64,000 nt of DNA from Sphingobacteriales bacterium (GCA_014763615.1 JACXVB010000005.1:20457-84456), one strand, 5' to 3'; numbered from the stretch's first letter, positions 12,936 to 17,976 are shown. The notes: generated by a model from the letters alone, not told the origin. Program-made: numbers and translations.

Positions 12936-12969
12936 AAAAAAAATGAGGCGGAGATTTGAATTCCGCCTC
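12936..12969 (-). terminator. Intrinsic terminator after the TPR-HisKA gene
   Basis: Perfect 8-bp stem gaggcgga/tccgcctc (12945-12969) followed by T8 on the minus strand. Confidence 0.75.
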
Positions 12970-12987: not shown

Positions 12988-14478
12988 TTATTTTTTATGG
13001 AGATGTAATCTCGTGGGGTCGTGTAGAACTTGGTTGATATCCATAATTTGCTCATCAATATCATCTACACATTTTTTCATCTGCGGAATTACTTCATTAC
13101 TTTCTACTATATTTTGTTGTACCAACATTACTAAACCTTTTAAAGTAGCCACAGGTCCTCGTATTTGGTGAGAAAGATGGGAAGAGTATTCAGAAAGCTT
13201 TTGATTTTTGTAAATCAAATCTTTGGTTCTTTCGGTAATAATATCTTCTAATCGTTGGTTAATTTTATCCACATTGGCTTTTTGCCTCAAAACTTCCTCA
13301 TTTAAGGCAGAAAGCACTCTGTTGCTTTCTTTTGATTTTCTATTGTTTTTAATGAGAATTACAACCAAAATGATAGAAAGTAAAGTAACAATGCTACTGG
13401 CAATAAACAAAGTTTTGGTGTTACGCTGTTTGGCAATGGTCAGCTCGTTTTCTTTTTGAATTTGCTGTTGCTTTAGCGTTTCTTGTATCAAATTGATGTT
13501 TGAGGCGGTGTTTTTCTTATAATTAACACTATCTAAATCATGCACTTCTTTTAAATAATAAAGTGCTTTTTCATAATTTTTTCTTTTAGCTTCGAGTTCA
13601 TAGGATTCAAAAGTATAATCATACAATCTTTTTTCGTCATTGACCAATTTTGCAAAAGCAATACCTTCATTCAAAAATTCTTCTGCTTTTTTGAAATTTT
13701 TGTCAGAAATATAAATGGAAGTTAGGGTTAAATCAATGGAAGCCACACTGCTATTTAACTCGAATTCTTTTGCTTTTTGATTAGCTTGCAGAAGTAATTT
13801 TTTTGCTTCTTGAACCTTGTTCAAACTGAAAAAAATCACCCCTCTATTTTGTAGACTTTGAGTTATACCAATGGGGTTACCAATTTTATTAAAAATTGTA
13901 CTGCTCTTCTGATAATTTTCAAGGGCAACGGAATAATTTTTTTTTCTAAAATATGTGTTACCAATATTTAAATAGGAACCGGCCAACAAATCTTTGATGC
14001 CGTACTTTTCTGCTATTTTTAATGAATTTTTGTAATATGATAAGGCTTTATCATAGTCGATATCAAGCCATAAGTTTCCTATATTATTAGAAACTTTGGC
14101 TTCCCCCAATTTATCACCCAATTTTTTATATAAATTTAAAGAAATGAGATAACGATTTAAGGCTGTATCTCTCTGATTGAGATAATAATAGCCAATACCT
14201 TGAACTCGATTAGATTCTGCCATTCCACTTTTATAATGGATTAATGAAGCGATTTTCTCCGCTTTTTTGGCGGTATTGATGCTCTGTTCAGGATCCGTTA
14301 ATCTATTTTTATAAGCTTGCTCATTTAGTTCATCTACCGTGTTGGTGTCTTTTTTTAAGCCCAATAAGGAGTCATCTTGCTGAAACGCGTAAGAAGCCGC
14401 ATGCAAACCTAAGCAAAGTAAAAGCATTAAATAGTACCTCATGAATGGTGTTTTTGTCTGAAGAGTAAAGATATTCAT
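12988..14478 (-). CDS. Membrane TPR sensor with HisKA-like H-box and no HATPase domain (likely start ATG 14442)
   Basis: Signal peptide MRYYLMLLLCLGLHAASYA; TPR repeats about aa 50-320 (NNIGN, NIGNTY, NRGVIF); TM aa 357-376; coiled coil; SHQIRGP (H437); ends 59 aa later. Confidence 0.85.
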   Translation of the reverse strand: MNIFTLQTKTPFMRYYLMLLLCLGLHAASYAFQQDDSLLGLKKDTNTVDELNEQAYKNRLTDPEQSINTAKKAEKIASLIHYKSGMAESNRVQGIGYYYLNQRDTALNRYLISLNLYKKLGDKLGEAKVSNNIGNLWLDIDYDKALSYYKNSLKIAEKYGIKDLLAGSYLNIGNTYFRKKNYSVALENYQKSSTIFNKIGNPIGITQSLQNRGVIFFSLNKVQEAKKLLLQANQKAKEFELNSSVASIDLTLTSIYISDKNFKKAEEFLNEGIAFAKLVNDEKRLYDYTFESYELEAKRKNYEKALYYLKEVHDLDSVNYKKNTASNINLIQETLKQQQIQKENELTIAKQRNTKTLFIASSIVTLLSIILVVILIKNNRKSKESNRVLSALNEEVLRQKANVDKINQRLEDIITERTKDLIYKNQKLSEYSSHLSHQIRGPVATLKGLVMLVQQNIVESNEVIPQMKKCVDDIDEQIMDINQVLHDPTRLHLHKK

Positions 14479-14727
14479 AAAATCTTAAATAATTCATTCG
14501 TTAAGAAAAATAGAATTATTCTTTATTTAAATGATAAAAATTATTTAATTGTAAGATTACTTTATTTTTTTTAATATAAATATTTCGTTTAAAATAAATT
14601 AGCCCATAATTTAGCCTATATATTAACGTATTGGATACGAAATTTCATTATTAAAAGTTTCGTTTTTTTAAATTTTATTGCACACTTATTCACAAAATTT
14701 TAAAACCATCAAAATAAAAGTAAAGAC

Positions 14728-14865
14728 ATGAAAAAAATCATCATCGCATTATTAGTAGTATCTGCCCTAGGTGTCACTTCTTGCAAAAAAGACAATGGCA
14801 TTACTCCAGCTAAATCAACCGCAGTAAAAGTAAACGATAGAGGAGACTTAGGTACTTGGGATTAA
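14728..14865 (+). CDS. Small lipoprotein/peptide P1, 45 aa (not in ORF track): MKKIIIALLVVSALGVTSCKKDNGITPAKSTAVKVNDRGDLGTWD
   Basis: Translated by hand. MKK plus hydrophobic core, lipobox VTS-C19, CKKD; A-rich leader; paralog immediately downstream. Confidence 0.85.
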   Translation: MKKIIIALLVVSALGVTSCKKDNGITPAKSTAVKVNDRGDLGTWD

Positions 14866-14905
14866 TTAACAAGAGTTTAAAACCATCAAAACAAAAATCA
14901 AGAAT

Positions 14906-15043
14906 ATGAAAAAGATTATTATCGTATTATTAGTGGTATCCGCCCTTGGCGTAGCTTCTTGTAAAAAGGAAAATAGCATAGCTCCAGTTAAATCAACTGC
15001 AGTAAAAGTAAATGATAGAGGAGACTTAGGCACATGGGACTAA
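14906..15043 (+). CDS. Small lipoprotein/peptide P2, 45 aa (not in ORF track): MKKIIIVLLVVSALGVASCKKENSIAPVKSTAVKVNDRGDLGTWD
   Basis: Translated by hand. 39/45 aa identical to P1; lipobox VAS-C19; last 17 aa identical to P1. Confidence 0.85.
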   Translation: MKKIIIVLLVVSALGVASCKKENSIAPVKSTAVKVNDRGDLGTWD

Positions 15044-15075
15044 GGATTTCATTAACAAACATTAAAATCAAGAAC

Positions 15076-15231
15076 ATGAAAAAGTTATTAATCATTGTGT
15101 TTGTAGCTATTACAGCGGTAGCCGCAGCAACAACATTAAAAAAAGCAGACAAGGTAGAGGCAAAACCAACTACGATTCAACAACAGGTGGTAGATGCGCC
15201 AAGAAATGCGCAAGTAGCTACTTGGGATTAA
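15076..15231 (+). CDS. Small exported peptide P3, 51 aa: MKKLLIIVFVAITAVAAATTLKKADKVEAKPTTIQQQVVDAPRNAQVATWD
   Basis: The ORF track extends it to 15034, but ATG 15076 has the same leader and MKK start as P1/P2. Hydrophobic signal without Cys; ends VATWD. Confidence 0.8.
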   Translation: MKKLLIIVFVAITAVAAATTLKKADKVEAKPTTIQQQVVDAPRNAQVATWD

Positions 15232-15343: not shown

Positions 15344-16714
15344 ATGCAAGTCATTAAGAATTATGTGGAAGAGCATCGTCAAAGATTTTTAGACGAATTA
15401 TTTGAATTATTGAGATTTCCGTCGGTAAGTGCAGATCCTAAGTATAAGGGAGAGGTATTAAAAACTGCGGATTTTGTTGCCGATAAACTGAAAGCAGCCG
15501 GAGCCGAACACGTTGAAGTTTGTGCTACAGAAGGCTATCCCATTGTTTACGGAGAAAAAATGAAAGACCCTACCTTACCAACGGTGTTGGTATATGGTCA
15601 TTACGATGTGCAACCACCAGATCCGTTGGACTTGTGGCATACACCACCTTTTGAGCCTACTGTAAGAGACGGTAAAATATATGCTCGAGGTGCTTGTGAT
15701 GATAAGGGTCAATTTTACATGCATGTCAAAGCTTTTGAGCTGATGATGCGTACGGAAACACTTCCTTGCAATATCAAATTTATGATAGAAGGAGAGGAGG
15801 AAGTAGGTTCTGATAATTTGGGGAAGTTCGTTTCCCAAAATACAGAGAGATTAAAAGCCGATGTGGTTTTAATCTCTGATACTTCCATGTTGAGCATGGA
15901 AAATCCTTCCTTAGAAACAGGTTTACGAGGTTTGGCATACATGGAAGTGGAAGTTCAGGGACCGAACCGTGATTTACATTCTGGCGTTTATGGTGGTGCG
16001 GTGGCTAATCCGGCTACTATTCTTTGCCAAATGATTGCTTCTTTACACGATGAAAACAATCATATCACTATACCAAGTTTTTACGATGGAGTCATTGAAC
16101 TTTCTGCCGAAGAAAGGAAAGCCTTAAATGATGCTCCATTTGATTTGGAAGAATATAAAAATGACCTTTCTGTAGAAGAGGTTTGGGGAGAGAAAGGTTA
16201 TACCACTATAGAAAGAACTGGAATTCGTCCGACTTTAGAAGTCAACGGAATTTGGGGTGGATATACTGGTCCAGGTGCAAAAACAGTCCTTCCAGCCAAA
16301 GCCAATGCTAAAATTTCTATGAGATTGGTACCAGGTCAAGATTGGAAGAAAATTTCTGATCTTTTCAAAAAGCATATAGAAAGTATTGCACCTAAATCTG
16401 TAAAAGTGAAAGTAACCGCTCATCATGGAGGAACTCCTTATGTAACTCCAACGGATTCTATTGCTTTTCAGGCTGCCTTTAGAGCTATTGAAGAAGCTTT
16501 TGGCAAGCAACCAGTACCTACTAGAGGTGGTGGAAGTATCCCAATAGTTGCTTTGTTTGAGCAAGAGTTAGGCATTAAAACGGTATTAATGGGTTTTGGT
16601 TTAGATAGTGATAATCTACATTCTCCGAACGAGAAATATGATATTTTCAACTATTATAAAGGGATAGAAACCATTCCTTTATTTCATAAATATTTTGCTG
16701 AATTGAGCAAGTAA
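15344..16714 (+). CDS. M20-family dipeptidase (ArgE/DapE/CNDP-like)
   Basis: YGHYDVQP, RGACDDKG, EGEEE, HSPNE; upstream TATATTTG -7 element. Confidence 0.92.
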   Translation: MQVIKNYVEEHRQRFLDELFELLRFPSVSADPKYKGEVLKTADFVADKLKAAGAEHVEVCATEGYPIVYGEKMKDPTLPTVLVYGHYDVQPPDPLDLWHTPPFEPTVRDGKIYARGACDDKGQFYMHVKAFELMMRTETLPCNIKFMIEGEEEVGSDNLGKFVSQNTERLKADVVLISDTSMLSMENPSLETGLRGLAYMEVEVQGPNRDLHSGVYGGAVANPATILCQMIASLHDENNHITIPSFYDGVIELSAEERKALNDAPFDLEEYKNDLSVEEVWGEKGYTTIERTGIRPTLEVNGIWGGYTGPGAKTVLPAKANAKISMRLVPGQDWKKISDLFKKHIESIAPKSVKVKVTAHHGGTPYVTPTDSIAFQAAFRAIEEAFGKQPVPTRGGGSIPIVALFEQELGIKTVLMGFGLDSDNLHSPNEKYDIFNYYKGIETIPLFHKYFAELSK

Positions 16715-16719
16715 AAATC

Positions 16720-16746
16720 AGCCCCGTCAAAAGCGGGGCTTTTTAT
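16720..16746 (+). terminator. Intrinsic terminator after the dipeptidase
   Basis: agccccg/cggggct stem plus T-run. Confidence 0.8.
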
Positions 16747-16845
16747 TTTAAAATGATGATATTTTAAGGACTCCTCACTTTAAAAGAGCGCAGAAGAGGT
16801 TTTCATCCCTGAAGCTCAGCAGTTTTAGTGGCATGGGGAGAATGA

Positions 16846-17976
16846 TCAAATTCTCCAACACTCGCAGTTTTCTAGAAACTCTTCTTTCACATCTGCTCCA
16901 ATGCCTATTTCGTCTTTTAATGTCAACTCAAAACCCTGATAACTCAATCCCCCTTTAATTGGATCTACCAAATGCCCTATTAAGCAGGTATCCATATCAT
17001 AAAATTTAAGCTGAGAGCAAGCCAAAGCAAAATGCAAATTGGCTGTTAAAGCTAAACGACTTTCTAACATTCCGCCCAACATACAACTGATATTGTGCAT
17101 TCTAGCTTCATGATAAATCTTTAAAGCTTCATGAATTCCACCAGATTTAGCAAATTTGATATTGATATAATCACAAGAATTAGTTTTAATGAGTTTTCTT
17201 GCATCATGATGGTTAAAGCAACTTTCATCAGCCATAATTTTGATGGGAGAAAGCTTCTTTAATTCGGGCAGTAAATCATCATACCAAGTGCGCATAGGCT
17301 GTTCGCAAAATTCGATGTCATATTTTTTTAATTCATGCAAAGCCAAAACCGCTTCTTCAAAAGTCCAGCCTTGGTTGGCATCTAATCTCAGTTTCATGGC
17401 ATCTCCAACGGCGGCTCTAATTTTCTTTACCCTTTCTATGTCGTCATCAACTTTTTTACCCAACTTAATTTTGATGATGCTGCATCCTTGGTTTTTAAAG
17501 TTAGAGGCTTGTGCAGCCATATTTTTAGGGGTATCAATCCCTACCGTAATATCAGTTTCTATTTTTCGCTTTTCTCCACCCAAAAACTGATAAAGCGGTT
17601 GTTGTGCGTTTTTGGCTGCTATATCGTACAAAGCCATATCAAAAGCAGATTTGCAAGTGGCATTAAAAGCAGTGTAAGCACTTAATTCGGCCATACGTTC
17701 TTCTAAAGCAAGCGGATCTTTCCCTTTCCATATTTTGGCAAAATCTTGAGCCATTTTTAGCATGGTTTCTTGAGTTTCTCCTACAATCATTGGGAAAGCA
17801 GAGCCTTCACCAACGCCATAAAAGCCAGCATCAGTATGTATCCTGATGAACATATTTTGGGCAAAATCCATTGTTCCGGTAGCGATGGTGAATGGTTTCA
17901 TTGGGATGCTAAAGCGGTAGATTTCTGTATGTGTAATGATCATTTTTAAATTTATGAATAATGCTTTATGATTCAA
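16846..17976 (-). CDS. Enolase-superfamily dipeptide epimerase (L-Ala-D/L-Glu epimerase-like)
   Basis: KIKLG, LDANQG, EQP, ADES and NIKFAK catalytic/metal residues. Confidence 0.88.
   Translation of the reverse strand: MNHKALFINLKMIITHTEIYRFSIPMKPFTIATGTMDFAQNMFIRIHTDAGFYGVGEGSAFPMIVGETQETMLKMAQDFAKIWKGKDPLALEERMAELSAYTAFNATCKSAFDMALYDIAAKNAQQPLYQFLGGEKRKIETDITVGIDTPKNMAAQASNFKNQGCSIIKIKLGKKVDDDIERVKKIRAAVGDAMKLRLDANQGWTFEEAVLALHELKKYDIEFCEQPMRTWYDDLLPELKKLSPIKIMADESCFNHHDARKLIKTNSCDYINIKFAKSGGIHEALKIYHEARMHNISCMLGGMLESRLALTANLHFALACSQLKFYDMDTCLIGHLVDPIKGGLSYQGFELTLKDEIGIGADVKEEFLENCECWRI

Follow-up and report, generated by a model that had tools for sequence, protein, structure and literature searches.

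A membrane receptor and three small exported-peptide genes, arranged divergently within a 64-kb window (the whole stretch of DNA that was analysed), form a cassette that looks like an undescribed peptide-sensing module. The pairing of receptor and peptides is conserved and exclusive among relatives in the Sphingobacteriaceae, and a C-terminal 8-residue unit is the functional, selected part of the peptides. We suggest that the locus may be a two-part envelope signalling module specific to the Sphingobacteriaceae, with the unit acting as ligand of a membrane TPR receptor, although our confidence in this explanation falls a little short of even. The window derives from a hot-spring metagenome bin, an organism present in DNA runs only.

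Layout of the cassette and its peptide genes

The features of the cassette are as follows.

12936..12969, minus strand: terminator-like hairpin, GAGGCGGA-N9-TCCGCCTC then T8, just past the receptor stop and before uvrD (read from sequence)
12988..14442, minus strand: receptor gene, 484 aa plus stop, with signal peptide, seven TPRs, TM helix, coiled coil and DHp
13021..13197, minus strand: HisKA-like DHp hairpin, aa 416-474, with the invariant H425 in LSHQIRGP
13351..13410, minus strand: single TM helix, aa 345-364, followed by KNNRKSKESNR (positive-inside)
13585..14346, minus strand: TPR superhelix, aa 33-286, helices A1-A7 and B1-B6 (Pfam TPR_12, 1.8e-22)
14386..14442, minus strand: receptor signal peptide, aa 1-19, read from sequence as MRYYLMLLLCLGLHAASYA with putative cleavage before FQ
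14443..14727, no strand: divergent AT-rich intergenic region, aligned across eight orthologous upstream regions
14728..14865, plus strand: peptide gene 1, 45 aa, with a lipoprotein-type signal peptide (…LGVTSC), ending DRGDLGTWD-stop
14906..15043, plus strand: peptide gene 2, 45 aa, tandem duplicate of gene 1, ending DRGDLGTWD
15076..15231, plus strand: peptide gene 3, 51 aa, with a non-Cys signal peptide (…AVAAATT), ending …PRNAQVATWD-stop

The original prediction held that three exported-peptide genes, all ending TWD-stop, diverge from a TPR protein across an AT-rich region, in a cassette that contains no other gene. All three ORFs were found where it placed them, and the AT-rich spacer is a gene-free 285 bp. 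Within this spacer, alignment of the eight orthologous upstream regions reveals a conserved non-coding block, TTAAGATTTTATGAATATCTTTAC (14465-14488), situated 23-46 nt upstream of the receptor ATG, which may serve as a promoter or operator. A sigma-70 scan and a TAnnTTTG count gave nothing above shuffled sequence, and the terminator-like hairpin is absent from the consensus-scanner output.

Peptide genes 1 and 2 are tandem copies of a 178-nt repeat unit, 79% identical at the nucleotide level, and both encode lipoprotein-type signal peptides (…SALGV[TA]SC); the mature length of lipoprotein-class peptides is approximately 26 aa. Comparison of the two genes gives a pN/pS of 0.11, with four synonymous and no non-synonymous changes in their last ten codons. 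Orthologous copies of gene 1 occur in at least 20 loci, and orthologues of gene 3 ending …PRNA[EQ][LV]ATWD in three (L001, L003 and L022). The peptide genes are real and under purifying selection: this pN/pS, together with conservation across orthologous loci, rules out a chance or artefactual origin of the ORFs.

Surface lipoproteins of Bacteroidota carry an export signal (LES) after the lipidated Cys, of the form C-X-K-(D/E)2-X (PMC5080379). The corresponding residues of the window peptides are C-K-K-D-N-G and C-K-K-E-N-S, with one acidic residue each, while Arcticibacter peptides have C-K-K-E-E-E, which matches the LES, and Mucilaginibacter peptides often have C-T-K-Q. When all peptide classes and the long repeat proteins found in relatives were scanned against Pfam and NCBIfam, nothing exceeded curated cut-offs apart from a PLDc match. 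This match, nominally above its cut-off, is compositional and lacks a significant stretch. Sub-threshold matches (PG1828 lipoprotein, ChrA-related RiPP, Phr_nterm and AimP) are confined to the signal peptide, with NCBIfam Phr_nterm at E = 0.03-0.55, under its cut-off.

Orthologous loci are syntenic in the order M20 dipeptidase, peptides, receptor, an HTH gene in some cases, and UvrD, and the flanks of the fetched loci hold genes for M20 dipeptidase, UvrD, HTH_XRE, and an acetyltransferase or CYTH protein. No kinase, response regulator, protease or transporter gene lies close by in the fetched loci or the window, and no response regulator or kinase was detected among ten further window proteins scanned. 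An HTH_XRE gene and a 95-aa gene that adjoin the receptor were considered as partner genes and rejected, as the pair is limited to Mucilaginibacter.

The receptor and its output module

The longest receptor ORF spans 12988-14478 on the minus strand and would encode 496 aa. Translation almost certainly starts instead from the Met at 14442, for a product of 484 aa, because orthologues are 476-488 aa long and the upstream ATG falls inside the conserved non-coding block; in at least one orthologue (L001), the reading frame from that ATG meets a stop. The receptor, which has more than 1000 homologues, is modelled by AF2 with a mean pLDDT of 88, as an N-terminal helix and a low-confidence linker, followed by the TPR superhelix and one continuous predicted helix (aa 290-442) that includes the TM helix. 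The receptor has this topology and fold, and signal peptides on both receptor and peptides place the TPR domain and the peptides together in the periplasm, as had been proposed.

The TPR groove is the site at which a ligand might be expected to act. Its invariant residues are N40, R47, E76, R79, K116, N119, N120, N123, N159 and N199, and the groove-lining A helices are more conserved than the B helices (p about 0.001). The Asn-ladder motifs pointed out earlier, NNIGN (aa 119-123), LNIGN (158-162) and QNRG (198-201), all proved invariant in the family. In both sequence and fold comparisons with the PDB, the TPR domain matches LGN/Pins, Rap, NprR and KLC1 best. The best fold matches include peptide-bound LGN/Pins, pheromone-bound Rap and NprR, and APPBP2 in complex with an RxxGP degron; those to Rap and NprR have a probability of 1.0 with TM-scores of 0.37-0.59, and sequence matches to RapI, RapH and NprR are weak (E = 1e-4 to 4e-3). 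The predicted structure supports assignment of the TPR domain to the peptide-binding LGN/Rap/NprR/KLC structural class.

At the cytoplasmic end, AF2 predicts the DHp as a two-helix hairpin, and the protein terminates 10 residues past DHp helix 2. The Pfam HisKA match is sub-threshold (21.9 bits against a cut-off of 26.9), and histidine-kinase DHp domains in the PDB match weakly (E = 0.06-0.7). Pfam finds no HATPase_c (CA) domain in the receptor, nor is there one in any of the 120 homologues listed (353-527 aa); the original prediction did not mention this absence. The earlier label of HisKA consequently stands for the DHp part and fails for a complete kinase: with no CA, or ATP-binding, domain, the receptor is not a complete histidine kinase. 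Helix 1 of the DHp, with the invariant H425 and SHQIRGP, is the most conserved segment of the receptor family.

The C-terminal coiled coil and DHp are shared with 1234 relatives, and among the 150 listed, the module match reaches the protein C-terminus in nearly all. Ten relatives were scanned; in eight, a recognisable sensor domain precedes the module and HATPase_c is absent (TPR arrays in four, Reg_prop/Y_Y_Y in three and GAF in one). Other sensor domains are thus also followed by this DHp-only output module, and the coiled coil plus DHp behaves as a signalling output domain would. The locus also reveals a widespread output module, a coiled coil and DHp without ATPase behind TPR, propeller and GAF sensors, and we found no account in the literature of how it works. 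Extension of the cassette to a distant TPR/DHp-only paralogue (P0265) was rejected: a metagenome scan gave three unrelated loci, one with a full kinase and LytTR regulator, one with a LuxR-type TPR protein, and one other.

Receptor-peptide pairing and the C-terminal unit in relatives

From the receptor side, 80 orthologous loci were fetched, 72 of which have at least 700 bp of upstream sequence. About 70 of these 72 have between one and 11 such peptide genes directly upstream of the receptor, in divergent orientation. The pairing holds across soil Sphingobacteriaceae, with loci from Pedobacter, Pelobium, Arcticibacter, Daejeonella and Mucilaginibacter. No further such ORF exists elsewhere in 905 kb of fetched flanking sequence or in the window. 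From the peptide side, a profile search retrieved 150 proteins of 40-66 aa, and the named ones are all 'hypothetical protein' entries of Mucilaginibacter or Pedobacter. All three matches that were looked up adjoin a TPR receptor of 478-479 aa, including where the flank on the peptide side is different. Thus, the proposed linkage of receptor and peptides as a cassette holds from both directions, and the check suggested for it, a search for ORFs ending [LVI][GAS][TQ][WA]D beside TPR-TM-HisKA genes, was positive, including the W-to-A variant. Neither the peptides nor the cassette were found described in Pfam, NCBIfam or the literature.

Since all of these loci are syntenic orthologues, their conserved linkage is one evolutionary observation repeated, and it could be partly inherited rather than selected. 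Co-variation of receptors with their peptides, which had also been suggested as a check, is not convincing: W-type and A-type clades are split by two TPR columns (N189D and G192N) and four cytoplasmic columns, a separation confounded by phylogeny.

Within the mature peptides, conservation is confined to a C-terminal unit, [KR][KR][DN]-Φ-[GSA]-[TSG]-[W/A]-D. Of 247 genes, 220 have the stop codon right after its Asp. Single precursors in Mucilaginibacter carry 2-37 copies of the unit, flanked by basic residues (KK or KR), and the copy count varies among near-identical strains. A lipobox is present in 100 of 251 peptide genes; this lipoprotein class is the most widespread, and most inspected loci hold at least one such gene. 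The same unit is kept on non-lipoprotein precursors, on Cys-to-Tyr variants (…LPSYTKQ…) and on multi-core soluble precursors, and some loci hold a long soluble repeat protein alone. These multi-copy and multi-core precursors of relatives are the strongest clue, one that the original prediction lacked, and the longest (30-37 units, up to 553 aa) resemble repeat proteins as much as pheromone precursors.

Proposed mechanism and its alternatives

We infer that the unit is most likely a ligand of the periplasmic TPR groove. Under this model, the small genes would give rise to Sec-exported precursors of a lipoprotein type, an ordinary signal-peptide type and, in relatives, a multi-core 'polyprotein' type. 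The unit, usually at the extreme C-terminus with a free Asp carboxylate, would be presented on the precursor tail or freed by proteolysis, and would then dock in the concave, Asn/Arg-lined groove of the TPR superhelix. Occupancy of the groove could be transmitted along one long helix (stalk, TM and coiled coil) to the cytoplasmic DHp and its invariant His. As the receptor has no ATP-binding domain, it must act through a separate partner, which might be a kinase, a response regulator or a phosphotransfer protein. The signal might act between cells or solely in the periplasm of the producer, and might feed back on the shared promoter region. A point against the model is that the surface-export-like signal of some lipoprotein-class precursors (C-K-K-E-E-E) would carry their tails to the cell exterior, apart from the periplasmic TPR domain. 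A more specific version, possible yet doubtful, is cell-cell signalling by octapeptide pheromones cut from lipoprotein or polyprotein precursors and perceived by the periplasmic TPR receptor, with clade-specific W and A variants of the unit as pherotypes, which would be the first such case in Bacteroidota. If the peptides are pheromones, the receptor would be one of a large and so far unrecognised group of 'DHp-only' transducers that have no CA domain.

Peptide signalling is described in Gram-positive bacteria, and our literature search found none described in Bacteroidota. The RRNPP systems of Bacillota (Rap/Phr, NprR/NprX and PlcR/PapR) resemble the cassette in that a gene for a TPR superhelix adjoins a gene for a Sec-exported precursor with the active peptide at its C-terminus, and in their expansion of paralogues or copies. 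The peptides indeed have the N-terminal Sec signal, the C-terminal unit and the adjacency (about 70 of 72 loci) of Phr-like precursors, but only by analogy. In contrast to RRNPP regulators, the receptor is a membrane protein whose TPR domain is periplasmic, so that no Opp import would be needed; its output is a CA-less DHp hairpin rather than an HTH or phosphatase bundle; the genes are divergent instead of co-oriented; some precursors are lipoproteins or multi-core; the phylum concerned is Bacteroidota; and homology is limited to the generic TPR fold. The receptor is not a member of RRNPP, being membrane-bound with its TPR domain in the periplasm and lacking an HTH, a phosphatase domain and the Rap N-terminal bundle.

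An architectural parallel is offered by the FimS-type sensor histidine kinases of Bacteroidota (P. gingivalis FimS), in which a signal peptide, a TPR array in the periplasm, a TM helix and a HisKA DHp follow one another as they do in the receptor. Over profile positions 7-392 of 618, NCBIfam NF053520 (FimS) aligns to receptor aa 18-394 (E = 1.6e-18); at 66.3 bits against a curated cut-off of 600, and with no HATPase_c, the receptor falls short of that family. We know of no ligand for FimS and of no adjacent peptide genes. LGN/Pins and kinesin light chain share the 'xNxGNxY' A-helix motif, whose Asn ladder holds extended peptides. The W-acidic (…W-D/E) motifs recognised by KLC resemble …TWD, although the analogy fails for the A-type (…TAD) clade. 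These proteins are eukaryotic cytosolic scaffolds, and the likeness is limited to fold and possibly to how peptides are recognised.

Among the periplasmic TPR sensor proteins that are numerous in this phylum, FimS-type kinases included, none has a ligand known to us. The locus supplies genetically linked candidate ligand-receptor pairs, and natural variants of the unit (…TWD, …TAD and …SFD) occur in cultivable Pedobacter and Mucilaginibacter strains, making the idea directly testable with synthetic peptides. Even if the peptides are not ligands, the locus still calls for an explanation: its array evolves fast, with as many as 11 genes and as many as 37 copies of an 8-residue unit inside a gene.

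Several alternatives to a peptide ligand can be considered. The peptides might be output rather than input: the TPR/DHp protein would sense another cue and control the divergent promoter, and the small exported proteins would be the products under its control, such as envelope or surface peptides produced in abundance. We regard this as unlikely, although a divergent regulator-target layout with a conserved non-coding block would suit it, as would the lack of processing or export genes nearby. High dosage is also suggested by amplification to 11 copies and by RNA. In three rhizosphere or root metatranscriptomes, RNA contigs with 99-100% identity span the peptide array of an M. rubeus-like locus, with apparently better coverage of the array than of the receptor; this evidence is at contig level only and comes from a substitute locus (L053). 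Conversely, a sole conserved 8-residue element that must be C-terminal or repeated is more easily understood as a recognition motif than as a structural or enzymatic product, TPR domains of this class are peptide binders, and a DHp-only protein has no DNA-binding domain. Regulated output is compatible with an autoregulatory loop and hence does not exclude the peptides as ligands. An envelope-state sensor is distinctly improbable. In RcsF-IgaA and NlpE-CpxA, a small lipoprotein signals to an inner-membrane sensor across the periplasm, and by this analogy the tail of an outer-membrane lipoprotein would touch the inner-membrane TPR sensor to report lipoprotein sorting, periplasmic width or outer-membrane damage, not cell density. 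The prevalence of the lipoprotein class, the short mature length and the periplasmic orientation of both partners are in keeping with such a sensor. However, there is no homology to those systems, the 8-residue unit is found equally on non-lipoproteins, Cys-to-Tyr variants and multi-core soluble precursors, some loci have the long soluble repeat protein only, and a tether would have no use for repeated units.

Multi-copy and multi-core precursors are also typical of RiPPs, such as cyanobactins and dikaritins, so the peptides could instead be RiPP or bacteriocin precursors matured by enzymes encoded elsewhere, with the TPR protein as scaffold, immunity factor or regulator. Tandem copies of a short unit in a secreted precursor are likewise known from yeast alpha-factor, but the cassette has no linked processing protease or modifying enzyme, release of the unit is putative, and up to 37 copies exceeds any bacterial example known to us. 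Further points for RiPPs are weak, sub-threshold NCBIfam matches to a chryseobasin-related RiPP peptide (E = 0.002-0.04) and to the RiPP TPR protein HaaT (2.5e-8, 32 bits against a cut-off of 1125), and a variant with CxGCG beside the WD. Yet these NCBIfam matches span the signal-peptide region only, the precursors carry Sec or lipoprotein signal peptides rather than leader peptides, and the unit lacks the Cys, Ser or Thr pattern of known RiPP classes. No modifying enzyme, peptidase or ABC exporter is present within 6 kb in the fetched loci, where inspected flanks are housekeeping genes. A RiPP biosynthetic cluster is rejected for want of a maturase in these flanks and because of the Sec signals, and we consider the wider RiPP reading very unlikely. 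Least probable, to the point of being slight, is that the TPR protein is a periplasmic docking platform or chaperone that passes repeat peptides to a protease, its DHp serving to dimerise without signalling. Periplasmic TPR proteins are often adaptors, as NlpI is for Prc, the receptor has no catalytic domain at all, and long multi-unit proteins could engage several TPR domains at once. Against such a role, DHp helix 1 with H425 is the most conserved part of the protein, and the same module ends many Reg_prop/Y_Y_Y and GAF sensor proteins, which argues for signal output rather than mere dimerisation.

Pairing of exported peptides with a divergent TPR receptor

Small exported peptides and the TPR receptor encoded divergently from them form a peptide/TPR-sensor module that is real, conserved and not previously described, and in which the peptides are candidate ligands. 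The original observation of short exported-peptide genes beside a divergent TPR gene was borne out at the same positions in the window, and relatives have greatly extended it. The locus comprises:

12936-12969, minus strand: terminator-like hairpin, GAGGCGGA-N9-TCCGCCTC then T8, directly 3′ of the receptor stop codon
12988-14478, minus strand: receptor, longest ORF; start set at Met 14442, giving 484 aa
14465-14488: conserved non-coding block TTAAGATTTTATGAATATCTTTAC, 23-46 nt upstream of the receptor start, common to eight orthologous loci
14728-14865, plus strand: peptide gene 1, 45 aa, lipobox (…SC), MKKIIIALLVVSALGVTSCKKDNGITPAKSTAVKVNDRGDLGTWD
14906-15043, plus strand: peptide gene 2, 45 aa, lipobox (…SC), MKKIIIVLLVVSALGVASCKKENSIAPVKSTAVKVNDRGDLGTWD
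15076-15231, plus strand: peptide gene 3, 51 aa, no lipobox, MKKLLIIVFVAITAVAAATTLKKADKVEAKPTTIQQQVVDAPRNAQVATWD
15344-17976: M20 dipeptidase (456 aa) and a 376-aa ORF, flanking the peptide array

All three peptide genes end in TWD and an immediate stop codon. Genes 1 and 2 form a tandem duplication of 178 nt and share 79% nucleotide identity; of the changes between them, 16 are synonymous and 6 non-synonymous (pN/pS = 0.11). Their last ten codons differ by four synonymous changes and no non-synonymous ones. The ORFs are therefore real, translated and under purifying selection, most strongly so at the C-terminus. Chance or mis-annotation was excluded as the source of these genes.

Homologues of the receptor number more than 1000; the best 120 are all of Sphingobacteriaceae type, mostly of about 480 aa, and all without the ATP-binding (CA) domain of histidine kinases. 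We fetched and scanned 80 genomic loci around orthologues, 72 of which have at least 700 bp upstream. In approximately 70 of these 72, between 1 and 11 small signal-peptide genes lie immediately upstream of the receptor in divergent orientation, across Pedobacter, Pseudopedobacter, Pelobium, Arcticibacter, Pararcticibacter, Daejeonella and Mucilaginibacter. The one clear exception, L027:1-984, is the sole locus lacking a peptide gene despite more than 900 bp upstream; a gene for a 175-aa membrane-anchored protein occupies the position of the array. Outside this position, neither the 905 kb of loci nor the 64-kb window contains an ORF of the peptide kind. From the peptide side, a search of 5.8 billion clusters with a peptide profile (A2) returned 150 proteins of 40-66 aa, every named one a ‘hypothetical protein’ of Mucilaginibacter or Pedobacter, and all three matches with a genomic look-up adjoin a 478-479-aa TPR receptor. 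The pairing is therefore exclusive and conserved. All loci are syntenic orthologues, so the linkage does not represent many independent observations, and no convincing receptor-peptide co-variation was found.

The usual gene order is M20 dipeptidase, peptides, receptor and UvrD. The M20 dipeptidase is syntenic in most inspected loci; in one of the three profile-derived loci, the peptide-side flank instead holds acetyltransferase and CYTH genes. The 376-aa ORF is provisionally an L-Ala-D/L-Glu epimerase, and its counterpart in L084, a metagenomic contig, matches Pfam MR_MLE_N/C. As both proteins lack signal peptides, we judge their position beside the array to be conserved synteny rather than function.

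On the other side of the receptor, the GC-rich hairpin lies between its gene and uvrD. Although a consensus terminator scanner did not pick it up, the hairpin and T8 suggest that the two genes are probably not co-transcribed. Upstream, TAyCTTTAC within the block at 14465-14488 resembles the Bacteroidota -7 box TAnnTTTG, and the block may consequently be a promoter or operator. The window derives from a hot-spring metagenome bin with DNA runs only; RNA evidence comes from a substitute, the Mucilaginibacter rubeus-like locus L053. Contigs 99-100% identical to it occur in three rhizosphere or root metatranscriptomes, spanning the whole peptide array but containing the receptor gene only as fragments. 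These contigs carry no strand information and may reflect DNA carry-over, making them weak evidence, consistent with in situ transcription of the L053 array.

An eight-residue unit in varied precursors

Conservation in the peptides is limited to the signal peptide and the final eight residues. This C-terminal unit reads D-[KD]-x-[DNR]-[LVM]-[GAS]-[TSG]-W-D in the Pedobacter/Pelobium/Arcticibacter clade and [KR]-[KR]-D-[IVL]-[GS]-[TSQ]-A-D in Mucilaginibacter, while Daejeonella oryzae ends in …LGSFD. In 220 of 247 genes, the stop codon directly follows the Asp of the unit.

Most loci mix a lipoprotein class with a class lacking the lipobox Cys, the latter including Cys-to-Tyr derivatives (e.g. 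…LPSYTKQ…). Mucilaginibacter adds a multi-core class of 2-6 unit repeats behind an A-x-A signal peptide, e.g. ATGTKKDIGTADVTKKDIGTADTKKDIGTAD…, and some loci replace the array with a single secreted protein of 158-553 aa holding 11-37 units (e.g. DKKNVGTADLN, DKHNTGSSDLS, GDRKTGTGDLN). Three metagenomic contigs are near-identical apart from the length of their multi-core gene, which encodes 80, 196 and 138 aa (L084:5211-5453, L085:5211-5801 and L086:5211-5627). This indicates expansion and contraction of unit repeats on a strain time-scale. Together, the conservation of the unit, the direct stop, the repeats and the strain variation indicate that the unit is the functional entity, whatever its action. 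A further lipoprotein precursor variant has its WD within a Cys-rich motif:

L025:5572-5823, L035:5483-5740, L065:5618-5869 and L077:4831-5073, all minus strand: WD inside GILC[RK]GCG(AG)WD, then a poorly conserved 30-40-aa tail

In three of these four loci it is accompanied by a …DKRLASWD peptide. Neither Pfam nor NCBIfam holds a family for any peptide class.

Receptor architecture and output module

We set the receptor at 484 aa on three grounds. Orthologues are 476-488 aa long, their start corresponding to Met 14442; the upstream ATG at 14478, the spurious start of a 496-aa ORF, sits within the conserved non-coding block, TTAAGATTT(T)ATGAATAyCTTTAC; and in at least one orthologue (L001) the frame from that ATG meets a stop.

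Pfam identifies TPR_12 (1.8e-22) and a sub-threshold HisKA (21.9 bits vs 26.9). The AlphaFold2 model (108 homologues, mean pLDDT 88) comprises a signal peptide, thirteen TPR helices at aa 33-286, and a single unbroken helix at aa 290-442 containing the TM segment (aa 345-364, followed by KNNRKSKESNR), a coiled coil and helix 1 of the HisKA-type (DHp) hairpin, which bears LSH425QIRGP. DHp helix 2 spans aa 448-474, after which the protein ends. This layout places the TPR domain in the periplasm and the DHp domain in the cytoplasm. A Pfam scan finds no HATPase_c, and the receptor is not a complete histidine kinase. The original HisKA label thus holds for the DHp part only. The original interpretation as a whole is supported in part, for a conserved peptide/TPR-sensor module with the peptides as candidate ligands.

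In a PDB sequence search, the TPR domain matched LGN/Pins with E-values down to 5e-21 and gave weak matches to RapI, RapH, phage Rap and NprR. Foldseek retrieved LGN/Pins bound to NuMA, Inscuteable, Frmpd and Afadin peptides; Rap, both free and in complex with Phr pheromones; NprR; KLC1 bound to a cargo peptide; and APPBP2 in complex with an RxxGP degron. Each of these is a TPR superhelix whose concave groove binds extended peptides. Across the alignment of 108 sequences, conservation is higher in the groove-lining A helices than in the B helices (mean entropy 1.29 vs 1.73, p ~0.001), and the A helices carry invariant polar residues (N40, R47, E76, R79, K116, N119, N120, N123, N159 and N199). 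DHp helix 1 is the most conserved part of the whole receptor.

Searching 1.84 billion representatives with the cytoplasmic 113 residues (aa 372-484; window 12991-13329, minus strand) recovered 1234 relatives of the coiled coil and DHp at E <= 1e-3. Among the 150 relatives listed (proteins P0241-P0388), the match almost always reaches the extreme C-terminus. Pfam scans of ten found a recognisable front sensor domain and no HATPase_c in eight: TPR arrays in four, Reg_prop and Y_Y_Y propellers in three, and GAF in one. Coiled coil and DHp without an ATPase are therefore a recurrent output module, and its bearers look like a class of CA-less HisKA transducers that is widespread but apparently uncharacterised. 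This argues that the receptor transduces a signal and is not just a passive scaffold.

Proposed mechanism and alternatives

We tentatively regard the following mechanism as the most likely, at a little under an even chance. The exported unit would bind in the groove of the periplasmic TPR domain, while still part of the precursor tail or once freed by proteolysis; the signal would run along the stalk-TM-coiled-coil helix to the DHp hairpin, which would act on a cytoplasmic partner. The analysis shows the exclusive conserved pairing, selection on the unit, the shared compartment, the TPR fold class and the modular output domain; binding, processing, direction of regulation and partner are inferred. 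Some lipoprotein precursors carry C-K-K-E-E-E, resembling the published surface-export signal C-X-K-(D/E)2-X (PMC5080379); surface export would place the tails outside the cell and require release and re-entry.

Alternatively, the peptides might be regulated products of the receptor rather than its ligands, an unlikely but credible reading that is compatible with a feedback loop. It is rather improbable that the pair is an envelope monitor in which a lipoprotein signals to a sensor, as RcsF and NlpE do, a reading weakened by the soluble and multi-core peptide classes. Less probable again are RiPP or bacteriocin precursors, given that the peptides bear Sec signal peptides and that the fetched loci contain no maturase. 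A non-signalling adaptor or chaperone is the least probable, being weakened by the invariant His in DHp and by the modularity of the DHp family.

The ligand-receptor reading invites comparison with Rap/Phr and other RRNPP systems, which likewise combine a TPR receptor and an exported precursor encoded next to it, with the active peptide at the precursor's C-terminus. However, the receptor here is membrane-bound, carries its TPR domain in the periplasm and has neither an HTH nor a phosphatase domain, and Opp import is not needed. The module, originally cast as an RRNPP analogue, is not a member of that family. FimS-type TPR sensor kinases share its domain order but possess the ATPase that it lacks; the NCBIfam Porphyromonas gingivalis FimS model aligns with the N-terminal 390 residues at 66 bits, against a cut-off of 600. 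Kinesin-light-chain cargo has a W-acidic motif, a likeness of recognition mode only, and one that fails for the …TAD clade. Alpha-factor, dikaritins and cyanobactins have similar multi-core precursors, but no processing enzyme is linked here. Literature searches, including literal motifs, found no description of the peptide/TPR cassette.

No kinase, regulator, protease or transporter genes lie nearby in the fetched loci and window that we inspected. Between the receptor 3′ end and uvrD, the Mucilaginibacter (…AD) clade encodes an HTH_XRE protein of 122-124 aa that has a coiled-coil tail, together with a 95-aa protein without a Pfam match (L081:3127-4019 and equivalent positions in at least 50 Mucilaginibacter loci). 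This pair is confined to that clade, with no counterpart in the window or the …WD clade, and its products may be clade-specific partners.
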